A stretch of 64,000 bases of DNA from an uncultured Planctomycetota bacterium (GTDB lineage: Bacteria; Planctomycetota; Planctomycetia; Gemmatales; Gemmataceae), in the NCBI GenBank assembly GCA_963849325.1, contig CAWKHF010000004.1, positions 160,001 through 224,000 of the forward strand, written 5' to 3'. Every line of letters begins with the position of its first letter. Positions within the stretch are counted from its first letter, which is position 1. Positions 558 to 58,817 of this stretch are shown here, piece after piece. Both the position numbers and the translations under genes were made by a program. The notes beneath the pieces were generated by a model. The model had not been told where the DNA came from, made no database searches, and saw nothing but the letters and a program-made list of their open reading frames with translations.

Positions 558-614
558 GTTTAGCCGCGACGCGCAGCGGAGCGCGAACGCGCTCCGCTGC
601 GCGTCGCGGCTAAC
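558..614. repeat. REP-like palindrome family A (GTTTAGCCGCGACGCGCAGCGGAGCGCG ... reverse complement)
   Basis: Long inverted repeat; related copies at 11778, 32561, 33068 and 43628. Confidence 0.9.
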
Positions 615-9376: not shown

Positions 9377-10633
9377 TCAGAGGCGTTCCGGCAGCAGCAA
9401 GACGGCGGGAGACTGCAACTGTCGCAGAATGGCGTTGGCGAACACGGCACCGACGGCGCCGTCGATGACGCGATGGTCGAACGACAACGACAGATACACG
9501 AGGTCGGCGGGGCGGACCTGGCCGGCGTCGTAGACGGGCCGCTTGACCACGCGGCCGATGCCGAGGATCGCCACTTCCGGGGGATTGATGACCGGCGTGG
9601 CGATCAGACCGCCGAGGTTGCCGACCGAGGTGATGGTGAAGGTGCCGCCGATCAGGTCTTCGCGGCGCGACTTGCCGGCACGGGCGGCGCTGCTCAAGCG
9701 TTCGATCTCGCGGGCGAGGTCGCCGATGTCCTTGTGGTCGGCGTCGTGAAGGACGGGCACCATCAGCCCCGAAGGCGTGGCCACGGCGATGCCGATGTGG
9801 TAGCGATCGTGCAGCACAATCTCGTCGGTCGTCTCATCGAGGCTGGCGTTGACGAGCGGCACTTCCTTCAGGGCGGCGACGACGGCTTTGATGAAGAAGG
9901 CCAGGTAGGTCAGCTTGACGCCGGCGCGAGCGTAGGTGTCGCGCAGGCTTTCGCGCAGCTTGACCAGGTCGGTGACGTCGCATTCCTCGACGTAGCTGTA
10001 ATGAGGAATGGTCCGTTTGGACAGCACCATGCGCTGAGCGATGGTGCGGCGCAGCCCCTGCATTTTGAGGCGCGTGCCGGGTTTGCCGTAATCTCGTTCG
10101 ACCTCGGCCGGCGTGGTCGCGGCTGTCGGCGACGCCGGCGCCGGCATCCGCGGAGTCAGATCCTCGATCAGGATGCGTCCCTCGGGTCCGCTGCCGTGGA
10201 CCGCGCCCAGGTCGATGCCGAGCTTGCGAGCCAGGTGCCGCACGGAAGGGGCGGCCTTGACGGGCAGGGGACCGCGCTCGGTCGGCCGCGCGGGACCGTT
10301 ATGGTTGGCCGACTCCGTGCGCAAGGGGCGCGTCATGGTCTCGGCGGCCTTCCCCGTCGCCGCGACCGCGACCGTCTGTCCCGACGTTGCCGCCGGCTGC
10401 CGGGCGCTGTCGTAAGTGAGCAGGACCTGGCCGACCTTGATCTGCTGACCGGGCTGAACGCGCAGGCCGGTGATCGTCCCGGGGAAGGGCGACGGCACTT
10501 CCATGGTGGCCTTGTCGGTCATGACCTCGGCGAGGGGCTGACCACGCTTGACGGCATCGCCGGGCTGCACCAGCCAGCGGATCAGCTCGGCCTCGTACAC
10601 GCCTTCGCCGATTTCGGGCAGTGCGAAGTCCAT
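9377..10633 (-). CDS. 2-oxoacid dehydrogenase E2 (dihydrolipoamide acyltransferase)
   Basis: Lipoyl domain EVMTDKATMEV, E3-binding AAPSVRHLARKLGIDL, catalytic SFDHRVIDGA. Confidence 0.95.
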   Translation of the reverse strand: MDFALPEIGEGVYEAELIRWLVQPGDAVKRGQPLAEVMTDKATMEVPSPFPGTITGLRVQPGQQIKVGQVLLTYDSARQPAATSGQTVAVAATGKAAETMTRPLRTESANHNGPARPTERGPLPVKAAPSVRHLARKLGIDLGAVHGSGPEGRILIEDLTPRMPAPASPTAATTPAEVERDYGKPGTRLKMQGLRRTIAQRMVLSKRTIPHYSYVEECDVTDLVKLRESLRDTYARAGVKLTYLAFFIKAVVAALKEVPLVNASLDETTDEIVLHDRYHIGIAVATPSGLMVPVLHDADHKDIGDLAREIERLSSAARAGKSRREDLIGGTFTITSVGNLGGLIATPVINPPEVAILGIGRVVKRPVYDAGQVRPADLVYLSLSFDHRVIDGAVGAVFANAILRQLQSPAVLLLPERL

Positions 10634-51278: not shown

Positions 51279-51680
51279 TCAAACCTCATCCTGTCCGGCG
51301 CCGTCCCCGGCTGAATAGAGACCCTGCGGGGAAAGCTCTGGGACGAGTACGGACGGAATAGTCGCCGCGGCAGGGAGGAGAGGCACGAGGCGGGGCCGGT
51401 TCGGTTCATCGGGGCGGCTCGCGGCGCTGGAGGCGCCCGTTGGCCGTAGCACGTCGGTGACGTCCTCGATCTCTTCCGCTGCGAAGACGGTCCAACAGCC
51501 GATCGCTTCGCCGTCCATGCGCACATAGTAAGATTCCCAGCCGGCCTCCGAGGCTTCCTTGCCCCCCAGCACCGTACCCTGACAGCCAGGGAGATAGCCT
51601 CGCGTCAGACCTGGCGTCGTTACGCGCACTCGGTCGCCCGCCTTGAACTCGCCTCGCATATTCCGGCCCTCGGACGCCAT
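51279..51680 (-). CDS. Hypothetical protein with SH3/KOW-like N-terminus
   Basis: FKAGDRVRV...GTV...YYVRMD...FAAEEIE pattern. Confidence 0.45.
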   Translation of the reverse strand: MASEGRNMRGEFKAGDRVRVTTPGLTRGYLPGCQGTVLGGKEASEAGWESYYVRMDGEAIGCWTVFAAEEIEDVTDVLRPTGASSAASRPDEPNRPRLVPLLPAAATIPSVLVPELSPQGLYSAGDGAGQDEV

Positions 51681-52020
51681 TGTCCTGCTACCCTCCGAGG
51701 CAAGTTTGCTCCGCGCCCGGGGGCGAGTCAATGGTTGCGGGCGGCGCCGGACGGAGTTTTTCGTCGCCGATTCAGGGACCGACGCAAAGATACGCCACGG
51801 ACATGCGTGGAAAGGTGGCACGCCGGCCGGCACCCTGCGGAACCAGGGTCGGAAGTATCCCGGCTTCGCGCCGGCCGCGTCCCGCAGGCTGGCGCAAGGC
51901 CATCGGGGCCGGATCGCGCGGAAGAAGGCGGAGCGTTCCGCATTCTCATGGGGTCTGATGCCGCGCCTCCGACCACCGGAGGGTACGCTTAAATTGCGTT
52001 CAGTCTTCCCTTTAGGTCAG

Positions 52021-52093
52021 TAGCGGCGGCTGGGATCGAACCAGCGACACGCGGCTTATGAAGCCGCTGCTCTAACCGCTGAGCTACGCCGCC
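52021..52093 (-). tRNA. tRNA-Met (CAT), probably elongator; CCA not encoded
   Basis: GGCGGCG acceptor stem, TAGCTCAG D-arm, GCGGC-TTCATAA-GCCGC anticodon arm, GGTTCGATCC T-arm. Confidence 0.93.
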
Positions 52094-52124
52094 AATGGAG
52101 AGCAAGTCATCCTGTCTGACAATG

Positions 52125-52152
52125 ATTCTACCCCTCCGGTTCGCCCTGGCAA
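52125..52152 (-). promoter_or_regulatory. Sigma70 promoter of the tRNA
   Basis: Minus-strand TTGCCA-16-TAGAAT. Confidence 0.65.
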
Positions 52153-52289
52153 GCCCGTCAAATCCTACGAAGACCACTCTCTCAGGTAGCGGTCGATGTA
52201 GAAGGCATAAAATAAGGTCGCGGGTTCCAGAGGAGACGTTGCGGTCGGCACACGCTCGTCCCGCGTCGTCTGTCTCAACGGGCTTTGAT

Positions 52290-53115
52290 TCAATGCGGCG
52301 GCAATTGCGGATTGCCGGCCGCTTCCTTGTCGTGGATCTCGATAGCTGTCACGCAATTCGTCAGCGCTCCCGTCATTATGTGGACCTTCACCCATGAATG
52401 CTCCGCGTGCGTCCGGCCGTATTTCTCGTCGTACCAGCGGTCGAACCTGCACGCGGAGAAACCCGACGAATCCGCCACAAACTTCGTTTCCAGAGCCTTG
52501 AGCGCAAGGGGGTCCGAGACACCATCCAGCGCAGGACCGGCGTAGCTTCCTCGCTCTCAAAGAACCGGGCGATGACGCTGTAGGAAACCGCCTCGCCGAC
52601 GTGGCCCTTCTCTTGCGCATGCGCAGGTCCGTCATAAATCTCCTGCCGGATAGGGTGGAAAACACCTTGAAACAGGCGGCGAACGCTTGATCCGCAAGGC
52701 GAGCAGGCGGACGGACGCGCGTTGACTCACGCTCCGGTTACTCGATGCCGGCGCATAAATCGGTCAGTAATTGTAGAAATTCTGCTTTCTCGTTGGTCTG
52801 TGCGGCGCCGTAGGCGGGCCAGTCCTGTTTGTAGGTTTTTCGCGGGCGCTGGATCGGTTCGCCGCCGACAATCTCCCGTATTGGCTTGCCGAGCCGAGCA
52901 TCGGAACTCTTGCGGAGTATGTCCACGCGGACGGCGATGACATGCTTGCACGGCTCTTGTCTCAGTTCATAATCCGCGCAGGTACAAGAGACGGGATGGA
53001 GCGTCACCTTGTACTTCTCGACAGAAGTAAGGGAGAAGACGAGCCTGTGTCCGTCCTGCTTAATGACGCGGCCACGGACAACGAGTTCTCTGGCTTTTTC
53101 CATGCGAGCGTCCAT
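52290..53115 (-). pseudogene. Transposase remnant with N-terminal SWIM zinc finger
   Basis: CTCADY...CKH SWIM; DWPAY, DSSG and WVKVHI resemble IS903 NWPTY, DSTG and WRKLHL; in-frame TAA at 52738, frameshifts, C-terminal half missing. Confidence 0.8.
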
Positions 53116-53299
53116 CGAATAATCTCCGATGATGTCCGCACGACGAAGCCGGATAATGAGGTTGTGACACCGTCCGGCTTCGGTCGTGCGGCTGACCAGC
53201 CCTGATGGAAGTTGGCACTTCCATCAGGGCTTTACTTTTCACGAGTTATATGGTAATAAAAATAGTCAGAAAATCGCAGGTCCATAGGAAGGAGAAATC

Positions 53300-53503
53300 A
53301 TGGGCAGGCCACGAAAAAGCGGGGATTTGCTGATGAATGTGCCGCTGCGGATCATGCTGACGACCGTACAGAAGCACATGATCGACGAAGCGGCTCAAAT
53401 GGACGGATTGGACACGTCAGCGTGGGCGCACCCCATTCTACTGAGGGCGGCGCAGGAACGGGTTGCGAGAGCCGGCGCGGCCAAGAAACGGACGACGAAG
53501 TGA
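53300..53503 (+). CDS. Small ribbon-helix-helix (DUF1778-like) DNA-binding protein
   Basis: AGGAGA RBS; MGRPRK...PLRIMLT..QKHMIDEAA...TSAWAHPILLRAA. Confidence 0.7.
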   Translation: MGRPRKSGDLLMNVPLRIMLTTVQKHMIDEAAQMDGLDTSAWAHPILLRAAQERVARAGAAKKRTTK

Positions 53504-53957
53504 ATACATCAAAAAGGCAGCATATATCAGAGGACACGCCGGGGCACTGGTGGTTCGCGTTCTCCCACATTCCCGCTACGACAGTAGCGAGATATTGTCA
53601 CAGCTGATACTATGAAACGCCAAGAGCCGAGCCTTGCTGGTAACAAGGTCGGCCCTTGACGATTCGCCCTTCCTATCTGGCGTGGCGGCGCGTTTGCTGT
53701 GTAGGCTACCGCCGCCTCGTCAGAGCATCTAGAAAGGGTTCCTCTATTGGGAACTCGTAAACGGGCTGCGCACTTCCGCCGTCACCTCCGTTGTCTCCAG
53801 CGGTCCCTAGCGTCTCGGCTCCGATTGCTCCATCGTCGGCGATTCTGGCTCAGCTTTCCGCGCCGTAAGCTTCGCTCGATGTTGGGTACGCGCCGTAGTC
53901 ACTGACCGCTAGGAGTCCTATCGACTAGGGTGTCCTCCGTATCGGAGGACACCTGAT

Positions 53958-54056
53958 TTATCCACTGTTTTCCACAGACGGCCACCGCTATCCACAGGTA
54001 GCCAAGTGTGTCCACCTGTGTCCACCTGTGTCCACCTGTGTCCACCTGTGTCCACG
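53958..54056. repeat. 10-bp-period tandem array of DnaA-box-like units
   Basis: TCCAC or a close variant at 53961, 53971, 53981, 53991, 54001, 54011, 54021, 54031, 54041 and 54051. Confidence 0.85.
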
Positions 54057-54378
54057 TCATCCATAATACACGCTAGCGTTACTTTCGCAACCAGTATCCT
54101 AGTTGCCTGGTTACCTAGTTACTGGTTACTCATCATTCAGGATGACCAGAATCCTCAGATTTCCAGTCATTCCTTGAATCATCGCTGCTCATTTAGTGCA
54201 GCCTAAGCATCTTGCCAGTGTCGAGATTTCTGCAACAGCGGGCTGATTCAAGAATCAACCGCGTTTAGTGTATCAAAGCCGTCTCAACGTCCTAGACTTC
54301 TCACTCCGCACCGCTCCGCGTCCGGTGTCGGCGATGTCCGGCTGGGGAAGGCGTAGGAGATATTTGTACAATAACGAC

Positions 54379-57300
54379 ATGGATGCCTCGGACCCCCTTG
54401 CCTTGTTCCTGCCGCCCGTGCAGCGCTGGTTTCGTGCGATGCTCGGCGAGCCGACGGCGCCACAGCGTCTCGGCTGGCCCGCCATCGCCGCCGGGCAGAA
54501 CACGCTCATCCTCGCTCCGACCGGCTCCGGCAAGACGTTGGCCGCCTTCCTCGCCTGCCTCGACGCCCTGTGGCGGCAGCCGGATTTGCCGCGCGGCGTT
54601 CGCGTCCTGTACATCTCGCCGCTGAAGGCGCTCAACAACGACATCCATCGCAACCTGCAACTGCCCCTCGAAGGCGTTGCGCAAGCAGCGAATGACATGG
54701 GCATGTCCCTGCCGGCGCTGGAGGCGGCGGTTCGCACCGGCGATACGCCGGCGGCGGAGCGACAGCGCCTCATTCGCCGCCCGCCGCACGTCCTCATCAC
54801 CACGCCCGAATCGCTGCACTTGCTGCTGACCTCGCGCGGCCGGGAAACGCTGCGCGGCATCACGCACTGCATCGTCGATGAAATCCATGCCCTGTGCAGC
54901 AACAAGCGCGGCGTCTTCCTCGCCCTCTTGCTGGAACGCCTGCAAGCGCTTCAGTCGAAGGAGTTCGTCCGCATCGGCCTGTCGGCGACGCAGCGGCCAT
55001 TGGAGGAAGTGGCGCGCTACCTCGGCGGCAGCGCGCCGGACGCCGAAGGCAACTGGCGGCCGCGGCCAGTGACGATCGTTGACGCCGGGTTGCGCAAAGA
55101 ACTCGACCTGCGCGTCGTCAGTCCTGTCGAGCAATTCGGGCCGCTGTCGGAAGGGTCGGTCTGGCCGTCCATCTATCGGCTCCTGGGTGACGAGGTTCGC
55201 CAGCATCGTTCGACCATCGTATTCGCTAACAATCGCCGCGCCGTCGAGCGCATCACGGCCTGTCTCAACGAGGAAGAGGAGATCGCTCGCGCTCATCACG
55301 GCAGCGTCGCGCTGGAGGTGCGGCAGCAGATCGAGGCGGCGCTGAAGGAGGGCCGTTTGCCGGCGGTGGTGGCGACTGCCTCGCTGGAGCTGGGCATCGA
55401 CATGGGCGCCGTCGAGCTGGTTTGCCAGGTCGAATCGCCCGGCAACGTCGCCCGCGCCTTGCAGCGCGTCGGCCGGGCCGGCCACCTGGTCGGCCACAAA
55501 AGCAAGGGTCGTCTCATTCCCAAGACGCCCGGCGACCTGCTCGAACAGGCCGTACTGGCCCGCGAGATGGCGGCCGGTCGCGTCGAAGACATCCGCGTGC
55601 CCATCAACTGCCTCGACGTGCTCGCCCAGCAACTCGTCGCCTGCGCTGCCGTGGACGATTGGGACGTGCCGGAGTTGTACGCCCTGGTTCGCCGCGCCTA
55701 TCCCTACCGCGACCTGTCGCCGCACGCCTTCGAGACCACGCTGGAAATGATTGGCGGACGATACCGCTTTGTTGACAATAAAGATCAAATAAATCACAAG
55801 AGGAGCGCACCACTTGCCGCGCTCCAGCCGCGCGTCAGCTGGGACCGCGTTCACAATCGCTTGCTCGCCCTGCCCGGCAGCCGGCACATGGCCCTGGTCA
55901 ACGGCGGGACGATACCGGACACGGGACAATACGCGGCGTTTGCCAGCAACGGGACGCGGATCGGCGAACTCGATGAGGAGTTCATCTACGAGCGGCGCGT
56001 CGGCGATACCTTCCTGCTGGGCACGAACGCCTGGAGACTGGAACGCATCGAGGCGGATCGCGTGTTCGTGTCGCCGGCGGAAGGGGCGCCGGCGATGGCC
56101 CCCTTCTGGAAGGGCGAGAATACCGGCCGCAGTTACGACCTCGGCCGGGCCATCGGTGTCTTTCTCCGCGAACTGGCTGGCCGACTCGACCAGCCGGGTT
56201 GTCTCGACTGGCTGGAACACGAGTTCTTCCTGGACCGAAAAGCGGCCCGTAATCTCCGCTATCACGTCGAGCGACAACTGCGGGTGACGGGCTGCTTACC
56301 CACGGATCGCACCCTCGTCGTCGAGGCGTCGCGCGATCAGCTCGGCGACTGGCAAGTCATCCTGCTCAGCCCGCTGGGCAATCGACTGCACCTCTCGCTG
56401 CGCCTGGCGCTGGAGGGCCGGTTGCGGCAGCGGCTCGGTTATCAGCCGCAATGCCTGCACCACGCCAACGGTGTCCTCGTCCGCCTGACCGACACGGATG
56501 AACCCGTCCTCGACCTGTTCGCCGGCCTGACGCCGGAGAACGTGGAGGGGTTGATCCTCGATGAACTGGCCGACAGTGCCCTGTTCGCCCTGCGTTTCCG
56601 GCAAAACGCAGCGCGGTCGCTGCTGTTGCCGCGCGGCCAGCCGGGACGGCGAGCGCCGCTGTGGCTGCAACGACTGCGCGGCCGCGATCTGCTGCAGGTC
56701 GCTCGCCAACATCCCGACTTCCCCGTGATCGTCGAGACGTTCCGCGAGTGTTTGCACGACCATCTCGACGTGCCGCGTTTGCAGGAATTGCTCGCCGACG
56801 TCCAGGCCGGCCGCGTCGAGGTGGTGACGCGCCGTGCCGAGACGCCGTCGCCCTTCGCGGCCGGGCTGATGTTCTCGTTCACGGCCGCATTCATGTACCA
56901 GCAGGACGGCGTCGAGGCGAACGACGATCGCTCGCGGGCGCTGGATCGACAGTTGCTCGAACAATTGGTCGCGCCCGAGCGGCAGGGGCATTTGCTCGAC
57001 CCGCGCGGTGCAGCAAGTGGAGCGCCGCTTGCGCGGCGTCGGCCGGCCGCCGCGCTCGACGGCGGAGATGGCCGAGTGGCTGCGCCGCCTCGGCGACCTG
57101 ACGCCGGAGGAGTTGGAAGGGCCGATGGCCGCCTTCCTGGAGCAGCTGCAAGCCGAGGGCCGCGCCTGCCGCCTGGAGTTGCCGAGAACGCGAGGCCAGC
57201 GCAGCTCGCCGCTACGCTGGGTGGCCGAGGAGGACGTAGAGCAATATCGATGGGCGTTCGGACTGGACGGCGCCGCGGGCACGGAAGAGAGGCAGGCGGC

Positions 57301-58817
57301 GGGAGCGGCGATCCTGGCGCGGTTTCTGGCCACGCACGCCCTGGTCGGTTTGTCCGACGTGCTGGCGCGGTATCCGTTCGAGCCGGACTGGGCGCGGCGG
57401 CAGATGGAGGAATGGACGCGAGCCGGCCGCGTCGTCGCCGTGTCCGCTCCGGACAGTGAGACGGTGCAGTGGTCCGACCCGGCCAACCTGGAGCAGGTAC
57501 AGCGCGGCAGCCTGGGCATCCTGCGCCGCGAGGTCGTCACCTGTTCGCCGCCGCAGTTCGCTGATTTCCTGCTGCGCTGGCAGTGCCTGCATCCCGAGGC
57601 GCGGCGCGGCGAAGGCGATGGTTTGGCGGACGTGCTGGGTCGTCTGCAAGGTTTGGCCCTCGACGCCGAGTTGTGGGAACGGACGGTCCTGCCGGCCCGC
57701 GTGCCGGGATACCAGCCGCGCTGGCTGGACGAATGGATTGCCGGCGGCGCCGGAGTGTGGGTCTGTCAGGGTGAGCCGGCGGAGGACGGCGAGGCGGGTC
57801 GCATCGCCTTTCTTGGCCGGGAAACGCTGCGGCAACTGCCCGCGCCCGTCTCCCCCGAAGGGACGGCACTCGGCGAGGATGCCGGCCGCGTACTGGACCA
57901 TCTGCGCGGCCGCGGCGCATCGTTCCTCACCGATCTCGCCGCGGACCTCGGCATGTCTCCCGGCGCCGCGCGAACGCCCTCGGCGGACTGACACGGCACG
58001 GCCTGGTGACGAACGACCACTACGATGTCATCCGATCAGGGGGCGAACGGCCGGCGTTAGCCGGCTGGTACAGATCCCACCAGCCGGCTAACGCCGGCCG
58101 TTCGCCCTCAATCGCGCGGCGAGCGCCGCAGCGGCCAGAAGGCCGCTGGTCCGTCGTGGCGTGGGGGCGTCCCGAACCCGAGGCGCACGCCGTCGCGCAG
58201 GCGGCGCTGCTGCTGGAGCGCTACGGGATCGTGGCCCGCGAGTTAGCCCTGATTGATCCCTGGCTGCTGCCGTGGCGCATCCTCTACGAAGTCCTCAGCC
58301 GCATGGAGCTGGCGGGCGAGGTGCGACGCGGTTACTTTGTCGAGGGACTCTCCGGCGCCCAGTTCGCCCTGCCCGAAGCGGCCCGGCAGCTGCAAGAACT
58401 GCACCTGCCCTCGACCGCGACGTCCCCGGCGCTGCTGCTGCACAGCATGGACCCGGCCAACCTGTACGGCTCGGGTGCTCCCTTCGACATTCCCTTACTC
58501 GATGGCGGCACCCGCCCGCTGCTGCGCCGCCCCGGCAACTGGCTCGTCCTCCGCGCCGGCCGGCCGGTACTGCTGATCGAGCAGCACGGCAAACGGCTGA
58601 CCGCACTGGCCAGCGCCAGCCGCGACGACGTCGCCGCCGCCGTCGCCTGTCTGCCGGGCATCTTCGACGGCTCGCGCGGTTCGGCGCGCGCCACAAGTTG
58701 ACCGTGGAGGAGTGGAACGGACAGCCCATCACGTCGTCGGAGGGCCGCGCCCTGCTGGAGACGGCCGGCTTCGTCCGCGATTACCAGGCCATGACGCTGT
58801 ACGCCGTCTGGCGTTAG
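54379..58817 (+). CDS. lhr: Long-form Lhr DEAD/H helicase with C-terminal winged-helix/glycosylase-like region; frameshifts near 57008, 57975 and 58685
   Basis: APTGSGKT, YISPLKAL, TTPESL, DEIH, LSAT, SLELGIDMG, QRVGRAGH, GGTIPD, C-terminal RRGYFVEGLSGAQFA and DPANLYG. Confidence 0.92.
58041..58107. repeat. Family C-like palindrome inside the lhr coding sequence
   Basis: Perfect 29-bp IR GGGCGAACGGCCGGCGTTAGCCGGCTGGT with a 9-nt loop. Confidence 0.85.

Follow-up and report, generated by a model that had tools for sequence, protein, structure and literature searches.

A 2000-bp interval at 52281-54280 of the window (the whole 64,000-nt stretch of Gemmataceae DNA analyzed here) is very probably a dead, single-copy transposon. 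It belongs to a planctomycete branch of IS903-like (IS5-family) cargo elements, in which a SWIM zinc finger is fused to a DDE transposase (hereafter SWIM-DDE). From left to right, the unit harbored a transposase pseudogene, an intact divergent gene of ribbon-helix-helix (RHH) type and 777 bp of non-coding DNA (53504-54280).

The bounds of the element were displayed by its ends. Repeat analysis of the window yielded an exact 9-bp direct repeat, GTCTCAACG, abutting both inverted ends (Table 1). The ends begin GGCTTTGAT, and GGCTTTGATTCA (52281-52292) pairs with TGTATCAAAGCC (54269-54280) at 11 of 12 positions, or at 12 of 14 when the pairing is extended. The unit so bounded is exactly 2000 bp long. 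Both terminal 12-mers were unique in the 8.16-Mb genome, with one forward and one reverse match, and by our own calculation an exact 9-mer repeat would be found at that pair of ends by chance with a probability of about 4^-9. The guanine-plus-cytosine (GC) fraction was 0.50-0.61 inside the element and 0.66-0.69 in the flanks. An earlier note, made from the letters of the sequence alone, had described a 9-bp repeat flanking inverted ends and had proposed a bounded transposed unit; its coordinates and description were correct, and the duplication together with the unique ends upheld the proposal.

The transposase gene of the window is dead, because it carries an in-frame stop and two frameshifts and has lost its C-terminal part with two catalytic residues. 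Two open reading frames (ORFs) of the minus strand represented it: 52738-53115, which encoded a SWIM zinc finger (PF04434, E 2e-7), and 52290-52478, which gave a weak match to the start of the DDE_Tnp_1 domain (22.6 bits against a cut-off of 23) and retained just the first third of that domain. The closest intact relative was found in genome G177 (L054, 1042-2364), with 66% identity over the N-terminal 125 aa and 74% in DNA. Searched with this protein by tblastn, the window displayed residues 21-187, 189-226 and 226-296 in three frames, the stop (52738-52740) falling within the first segment and the frameshifts lying near 52620 and 52507. The remnant ended at the left end of the element, at the equivalent of residue 296 of 440. 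About 145 C-terminal residues were thus gone, including the SGDKAY and RSNVES motifs, in which the DDE triad has its second D and its E. The domain matches and the three-frame map bear out what had been noted before, that a transposase remnant with a SWIM finger is present.

Enzymes with the same two domains were abundant. A database search returned 3113 proteins at E <= 0.001 among 8000 scored, and both Pfam domains were present in 103 of the 120 proteins listed, which their sources named simply "transposase" and several of which came from Gemmataceae. Intact relatives encoded a transposase of about 417 aa with the SWIM extension, and matched PF01609 at E 5e-21 to 8e-23. The genome of the window itself also held intact SWIM and DDE_Tnp_1 genes, at 42-57% identity. 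A search of genome contigs with the G177 transposase for closer relatives confirmed none. A scan of metagenomes gave 36 loci with a best identity of 55%; an RHH homologue stood beside the transposase in 4 of these 36 loci, many of which lay on short contigs that broke off near the gene.

Intact relatives of 3.2-4.3 kb could be bounded in other planctomycete (probably Gemmataceae) genomes. Genome G153 harbored six copies of an element of 3177-3179 bp with ends AGCTTTGCAC and exact 9-bp duplications (CCCTGGCGA, GCGTGGCCC), and a second element of 3416 bp with ends GGCTTTGCACCACG, for which a duplication was not found. Exact 9-bp duplications also flanked GGCTTTG-type ends in a 4046-bp element of G167 and in a 3819-bp element of G177. 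The G177 element encoding the closest relative was 4297 bp long with ends GGCTTTGTTCC, its duplication not being preserved, while two metagenome elements of 3922 and 3293 bp displayed GGCTTTG-type ends with duplications agreeing at 8 of 9 positions. Inverted repeats starting GGCTTTG were common to the window, six bounded relatives and the named insertion sequence ISVa2. The window and the bounded relatives shared one layout (end, transposase, divergent small gene, passenger region, end), and the passenger region held 1-2 kb of DNA that varied from relative to relative, with a RelE/helix-turn-helix (HTH) pair in one and ORFs of 343, 382 and about 217 aa belonging to no family in others. The earlier note had proposed that the fused SWIM finger, the GGCTTTG ends, the 9-bp duplications and the divergent RHH gene be sought together in intact homologues; all four recurred.

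Some of these elements presented further features. The RelE-like/HTH (HigBA-like) toxin-antitoxin pair was the passenger of the 3416-bp G153 element (L088, 2123-5538), which was present at least three times. Two copies of the six-copy element (L037, L038) had their flanks swapped in reverse complement, which suggests an inversion by recombination between copies. On contig 5 of G177 the 4297-bp and 3819-bp elements lay head to tail, 81 bp apart (L095, 2667-6963 and 7045-10863), and the former carried three TTAGGGAACAA-like sub-terminal repeats at its right end. In the window's own genome, a common leader of about 440 bp, 71% identical between its two copies (L008, 1029-1500 on C6; L010, 1030-1470 on C5), preceded two intact SWIM-DDE genes that had neither an RHH gene nor a GGCTTTG left end. 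Each leader contained an odd tRNA-like gene (an 88-nt 'tRNA-Ala(agc)' and a 78-nt 'tRNA-Ser(gct)', respectively), a promoter-like TATAAT and a hairpin.

IS903 is the textbook minimal insertion sequence; its ends start GGCTTTG and its insertion duplicates 9 bp of target. Its transposase is not known to carry a SWIM domain. The best NCBIfam model for the SWIM-DDE enzymes was NF033579, which four intact relatives matched at 102.6, 93.3, 111.3 and 110.1 bits, below the curated cut-off of 140 bits, whereas the transposase of ISVa2 scored 387 bits. Matches in plasmids were IS5-family transposases alone, at 30% identity or less and with the SWIM part covered by none; those with names included ISVa2, ISPko1, ISRhba5, ISAs4 and ISSod12. 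ISPko1 is assigned to the IS903 group by PMC3281130. The G177 enzyme and the ISVa2 transposase were 28% identical over 178 aa (E 2e-13). ISVa2 is 1054 bp long with a 306-aa transposase and ends GGCTTTGTTGCGTAATTC, and the 11 nt with which its end starts, GGCTTTGTTGC, also open the G177 element.

The likeness to the IS903 group, as compared through ISVa2 and ISPko1, thus lay in the DDE_Tnp_1 core, the best model, the GGCTTTG ends and the 9-bp duplication, so the kinship with IS903 claimed before was sustained. The SWIM-DDE lineage differed from that group by an N-terminal SWIM zinc finger of about 110 aa, by a second, divergent gene of RHH type, and by a length of 2-4.3 kb including passenger DNA, compared with the 1054 bp of ISVa2. 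Sharing ends, duplication and catalytic core with IS903-type elements, it would work as they do, but it is not a simple insertion sequence of about 1 kb with a single transposase gene of about 300 aa, and it does not reach the curated score. These differences agree with the earlier claim of a cargo-carrying lineage distinct from IS903. A literature search found no description of a SWIM-bearing IS5 or IS903 element, and the family, abundant as it is, is apparently unnamed.

The divergent gene encoded 67 aa and was intact. Its homologues were present in 37 of 200 other family genomes, and adjoined the transposase in 19 of 23 loci of relatives (L065-L087), being missed in L066, L072, L076 and L087; no RHH gene lay beside the three other intact or partial transposase copies in the window's own genome. 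A profile built from a 26-member alignment of the family matched RHH structures in the PDB (CopG, 7ak7, E 0.011; NikA, E 0.056; TacA-type and ParD chains), and Pfam NikA-like matched 19 of the 26 members, with a best E of 9.4e-7. The AlphaFold2 model (mean predicted local distance difference test score, pLDDT, 87) displayed an extended strand-like arm and two helices, and the top Foldseek list was almost wholly made of RHH proteins, but all at E >= 0.12. The ORF is regarded with moderate confidence as RHH-type, the fold being supported at the family level, and the earlier reading of a divergent RHH gene is retained on that basis.

Two long hairpins in the region between the two genes (fold z -7.1) form a candidate operator or terminator. 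From family knowledge and the anatomy of the elements, the DDE_Tnp_1 transposase with its putative DNA-binding SWIM finger would bind the inverted ends starting GGCTTTG, and insertion would proceed by a 9-bp staggered cut that leaves the 9-bp duplication. The small RHH dimer, encoded divergently, would share the palindrome-rich control region with the transposase and most likely repress it, and the interval between the RHH gene and the far end would serve as a slot for variable passenger DNA.

Table 1. Features of the element and its surroundings (positions in the window)
Feature	Position	Strand	Details and evidence
tRNA-Met (CAT), left neighbour	52020..52093	-	5' end faces the element; ARAGORN; Rfam tRNA 68.3 bits
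Tyrosine-integrase remnant	52113..52168	+	First ~18 codons; 84-90% nucleotide match to G177 and G107 loci
Left target-site duplication copy	52272..52280		GTCTCAACG; repeat analysis
Left terminal inverted repeat	52281..52294	+	GGCTTTGATTCAAT; 12/14 with right end; holds the stop codon of the transposase frame
SWIM + DDE transposase pseudogene	52290..53115	-	ORFs, Pfam matches, tblastn with closest intact relative
Two long hairpins/palindromes, transposase-RHH intergenic region	53136..53231		53136-53191; perfect 15-bp stem 53198-53231; fold z -7.1
RHH-type gene, intact, 67 aa	53300..53503	+	Divergent partner of transposase; Shine-Dalgarno-like GGAGA upstream
Structured non-coding domain	53545..53750	-	Two-hairpin core ~53610-53738; recurs beside the G113 RHH-transposase pair
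10-bp-phased (A/T/G)TCCAC array	53958..54065	+	4.9 perfect TGTGTCCACC copies at 54007-54055; preceded by hairpin 53929-53953
Right terminal inverted repeat	54267..54280	-	Minus-strand reading GGCTTTGATACACT
Right target-site duplication copy	54281..54289		GTCTCAACG; repeat analysis
lhr (large helicase-related), right neighbour	54379..57459	+	DEAD, Helicase_C, WH_Lhr and DEAD_assoc domains

The 777 bp between the RHH gene and the right end displayed no trace of coding. No ORF with a homologue was found there, nor any codon-phase GC signal, the spread being 0.02-0.18 compared with 0.24-0.32 in most 150-nt windows of two genes; the some 780 bp previously noted as devoid of a convincing ORF remain so. 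This cargo had no second copy in its own genome and no homologue in 200 family genomes (the RHH part excepted), 10 genus genomes, plasmids or phages. Neither tblastx nor blastn matched it to the elements of the relatives, and Rfam gave no match at E <= 1 and noise alone at E <= 10.

Part of the cargo is a minisatellite, the 10-bp-phased TCCAC array. Three of its units lay within one mismatch of the DnaA-box consensus, but a reading as DnaA boxes was not supported: the window held 4 near-consensus boxes against 3.35 expected, 3 of the 4 at 53958-53996, and the tandem units were off consensus at 3 of 9 positions. The array was also rejected as a shared functional site, the same 27-mer being found in two unrelated genomes only, in intergenic DNA, and none of the seven bounded relatives had a comparable 10-bp array. 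The same minisatellite, (GTGTCCACCT)n, stood just past gene ends in a Fuerstiella metagenome-assembled genome (L097, 1997-2035) and in Geomonas (L098, 1995-2070). In genome G113 (L141, 6460-6500), CAGTGGATAGC and CCACTGGACAACCACA motifs about 320 nt upstream of the conserved module described below resembled the TCCAC units of the window, on the same strand relative to the module.

The cargo folded strongly, with a bias towards the minus strand. Against dinucleotide-preserving shuffles, z was -6.95 on the minus strand and -4.2 on the plus strand for 53504-53960, and -6.14 and -2.2, respectively, for 53961-54280; for 54056 to 53508, computed on the minus strand only, it was -7.66. A 250-nt scan of 51300-55549 displayed three strongly folding islands, all within the element, while the other 18 windows remained at |z| <= 2.1, and the equivalent regions of four relatives (16 control segments) gave z of -2.5 to +1.1. 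On the minus strand, sites resembling a promoter (54090..54063) and a terminator (53541..53518) were predicted.

A covariance model built from 53545-53750 alone gave one match in 150 family genomes, in G113 (28.2 bits, E 5.6e-4 per genome). The matching module lay 186 bp past the stop of an RHH homologue and beside a full SWIM-DDE gene, an arrangement that reproduces both the order and the strands found in the window. The two modules were 60% identical when aligned with MAFFT and 69% in the model-guided alignment, while the N-termini of the two transposases were 36% identical. Two unpaired stretches were conserved, GGAAGGGCGAA-CGUC and CGUUUCAU. In the model-guided alignment, which comprises two sequences only and is fitted to the model, 10 of 46 shared pairs were changed on both sides and 98.2% of cells paired. 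The observed covariation was reached by 1 of 500 shuffles, and slid controls gave 0-1, again with an alignment fitted to the structure. Caveats attach to this module: plain blastn misses the G113 match, leaving the model score, the conserved unpaired stretches and the position as the grounds for homology, and unrelated long hairpins also reach about 28 bits with the model, as in G197, where no RHH gene or transposase is nearby. Matches in G177 (24.7 bits), G167 (16 bits), G201 (on the wrong strand), G138 and G197 were judged generic hairpins. A two-hairpin module of about 135 nt, with compensatory changes, is nonetheless probably conserved across genera.

Two observations stand beside these searches. 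A 44-nt near-perfect hairpin elsewhere in the window (565-608; GC 0.82) scored 21 bits with the covariance model. No ends could be defined for the G113 element; its transposase locus was flanked by two short repeat families of about 190 bp (L141, 6066-6252) and about 115 bp (9934-10048), 77-92% identical and with 25 and 13 further places listed in that genome, which may be elements akin to miniature inverted-repeat transposable elements (MITEs).

At about even odds, the non-coding part is no more than decayed passenger DNA, a dead gene and a minisatellite without function, whose folding stems from leftover palindromes or terminators. Relatives hold protein-coding passengers in the same slot, the cargo is without homologue in the genomes, plasmids and phages searched, its minisatellite also occurs in unrelated bacteria, and the covariance model picks out the unrelated G197 hairpin. 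Set against decay are the strength of the folding (z -6 to -7.7) and its minus-strand bias, its confinement to three islands, the modest z values of the control segments, and the location of the sole match in 150 genomes, which adjoins an RHH-transposase pair with order and strands unchanged and has ten pairs changed on both sides. If the latter points prevail, the 777 bp would not be random filler, having strongly folding islands and one module conserved in another genus. A bolder proposal, considered improbable at present, would have the transposase-sense strand of the cargo (about 54056 to 53508) specify a structured RNA, acting as a functional partner of the RHH-transposase module. Its core, proposed just as tentatively, would be two hairpins of about 135 nt ending in a hairpin and UUUCAU. 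In part of the IS903-like lineage, such an RNA could regulate as an antisense or attenuator-type molecule, or could travel as a passenger; if true, this would be an IS5-family transposon with a dedicated RNA component.

The left end of the element coincides with the truncation of its transposase, as the earlier note had observed. Homology to internal transposase codons stopped about 14 nt short of the tip, and TGA at 52290-52292 closed the frame at a distance of 9 nt from the terminus, compared with 10 nt for TAG, the natural stop of the closest intact relative. The terminal 13 nt agreed with the true left terminus of that relative at 10 of 13 positions (by our own reading). The left end is therefore likely to be genuine, an internal deletion having removed about 430 bp and spared the last 14 bp or so of the true end. 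A surrogate end is a less probable origin: an internal sequence of the transposase gene resembling GGCTTTGA(T/C) would have been used as a pseudo-end, and transposition itself would have created the 2-kb unit. Transposase homology does reach within about 14 nt of the terminus, and the codons that follow in the closest relative (L-V-K-A, ...GTCAAGGCG...) resemble the terminal ATCAAAGCC at 6 of 9 positions. The internal deletion was favoured because this surrogate match is 6/9 only and requires a 3-nt indel, and the true left terminus of the relative fits the terminal 13 nt better, its stop codon being almost equally far from the tip. That a deletion should stop 14 bp short of the terminus would itself be coincidental, unless later trans-mobilisation selected the truncated form; the deletion may have come before the insertion (by trans-mobilisation) or after it.

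The surroundings point to an older island. In two same-genus genomes (L064, 1809-2990; L057), tRNA-Met was followed after about 165 bp by a full tyrosine-integrase gene, that of G177 matching Phage_integrase (PF00589) at E 1.9e-10. The interval between tRNA-Met and lhr is read from these sequences as the scar of an integrative element, because the window keeps just about 18 integrase codons. The left flank matched same-genus genomes at the tRNA and the integrase start alone. On the other side, lhr was present in all 10 same-genus genomes, with similarity stopping about 45 bp upstream of its start codon; this genus-conserved region begins near 54334 and was left intact by the insertion. The element sits between tRNA-Met, whose 5' end faces it, and the promoter region of lhr, in keeping with the tRNA-lhr placement of the earlier note. 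None of the 10 genomes had tRNA-Met within 1.5 kb upstream of lhr, so that the scar around the element is a rearranged one.

Several points weigh against the assignment of 52281-54280 to this transposon lineage. The closest relative is only 66% identical in N-terminal protein (74% in DNA), the inverted repeat is short (12/14) and the copy is single. The window's own RHH-type protein alone passes no Pfam or NCBIfam model, Foldseek E values are all above 0.1, and both regulation by this protein and DNA binding by the SWIM finger are inferred. No empty tRNA-Met/lhr site was found among the 10 same-genus genomes, since synteny is lost in the relatives and the junction is unique to the window genome, so that insertion is deduced from the duplication alone. 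That the repeats are mere chance features within a decayed integrative-element scar beside tRNA-Met, as the integrase remnant and the lack of an empty site for comparison might suggest, is all but refuted by an exact 9-mer next to each copy of a terminal motif found nowhere else in 8.16 Mb and shared with at least five other bounded relatives, also with 9-bp duplications.

Like MITE-like deletion derivatives of insertion sequences, the element kept both ends and its target duplication and lost a working transposase. MITE-like elements are multi-copy, whereas both the terminal 12-mers and the element DNA occur once in the window's genome, and this copy is still 2 kb long with its accessory gene intact. 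As a SWIM-DDE transposon, the copy would have entered GTCTCAACG as one unit, landing in the existing scar of the integrase island that separates tRNA-Met from the lhr promoter. Its transposase gene carries the stop and the two frameshifts and has lost about 430 bp of its 3' part, most likely by the internal deletion that left the last 14 bp or so of the true left end, natural stop codon included. Such a copy could not move by itself, and no element with matching ends appears to be left in the genome.

The window copy is a fossil with no likely present activity, of special interest only for its probably conserved, strongly folding non-coding module. What it adds is bacterial, planctomycete evidence for a large sister lineage of IS903, with more than 3000 database proteins labelled merely "transposase". 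This lineage fuses a SWIM finger to the enzyme, keeps a small RHH gene adjacent to it and ferries passenger genes in an open slot. It should be given a name and a model so that genome annotation recognises its members, and it would also make a simple test case for how the behaviour of an IS903-type transposase changes when a putative DNA-binding finger and a putative repressor are added.

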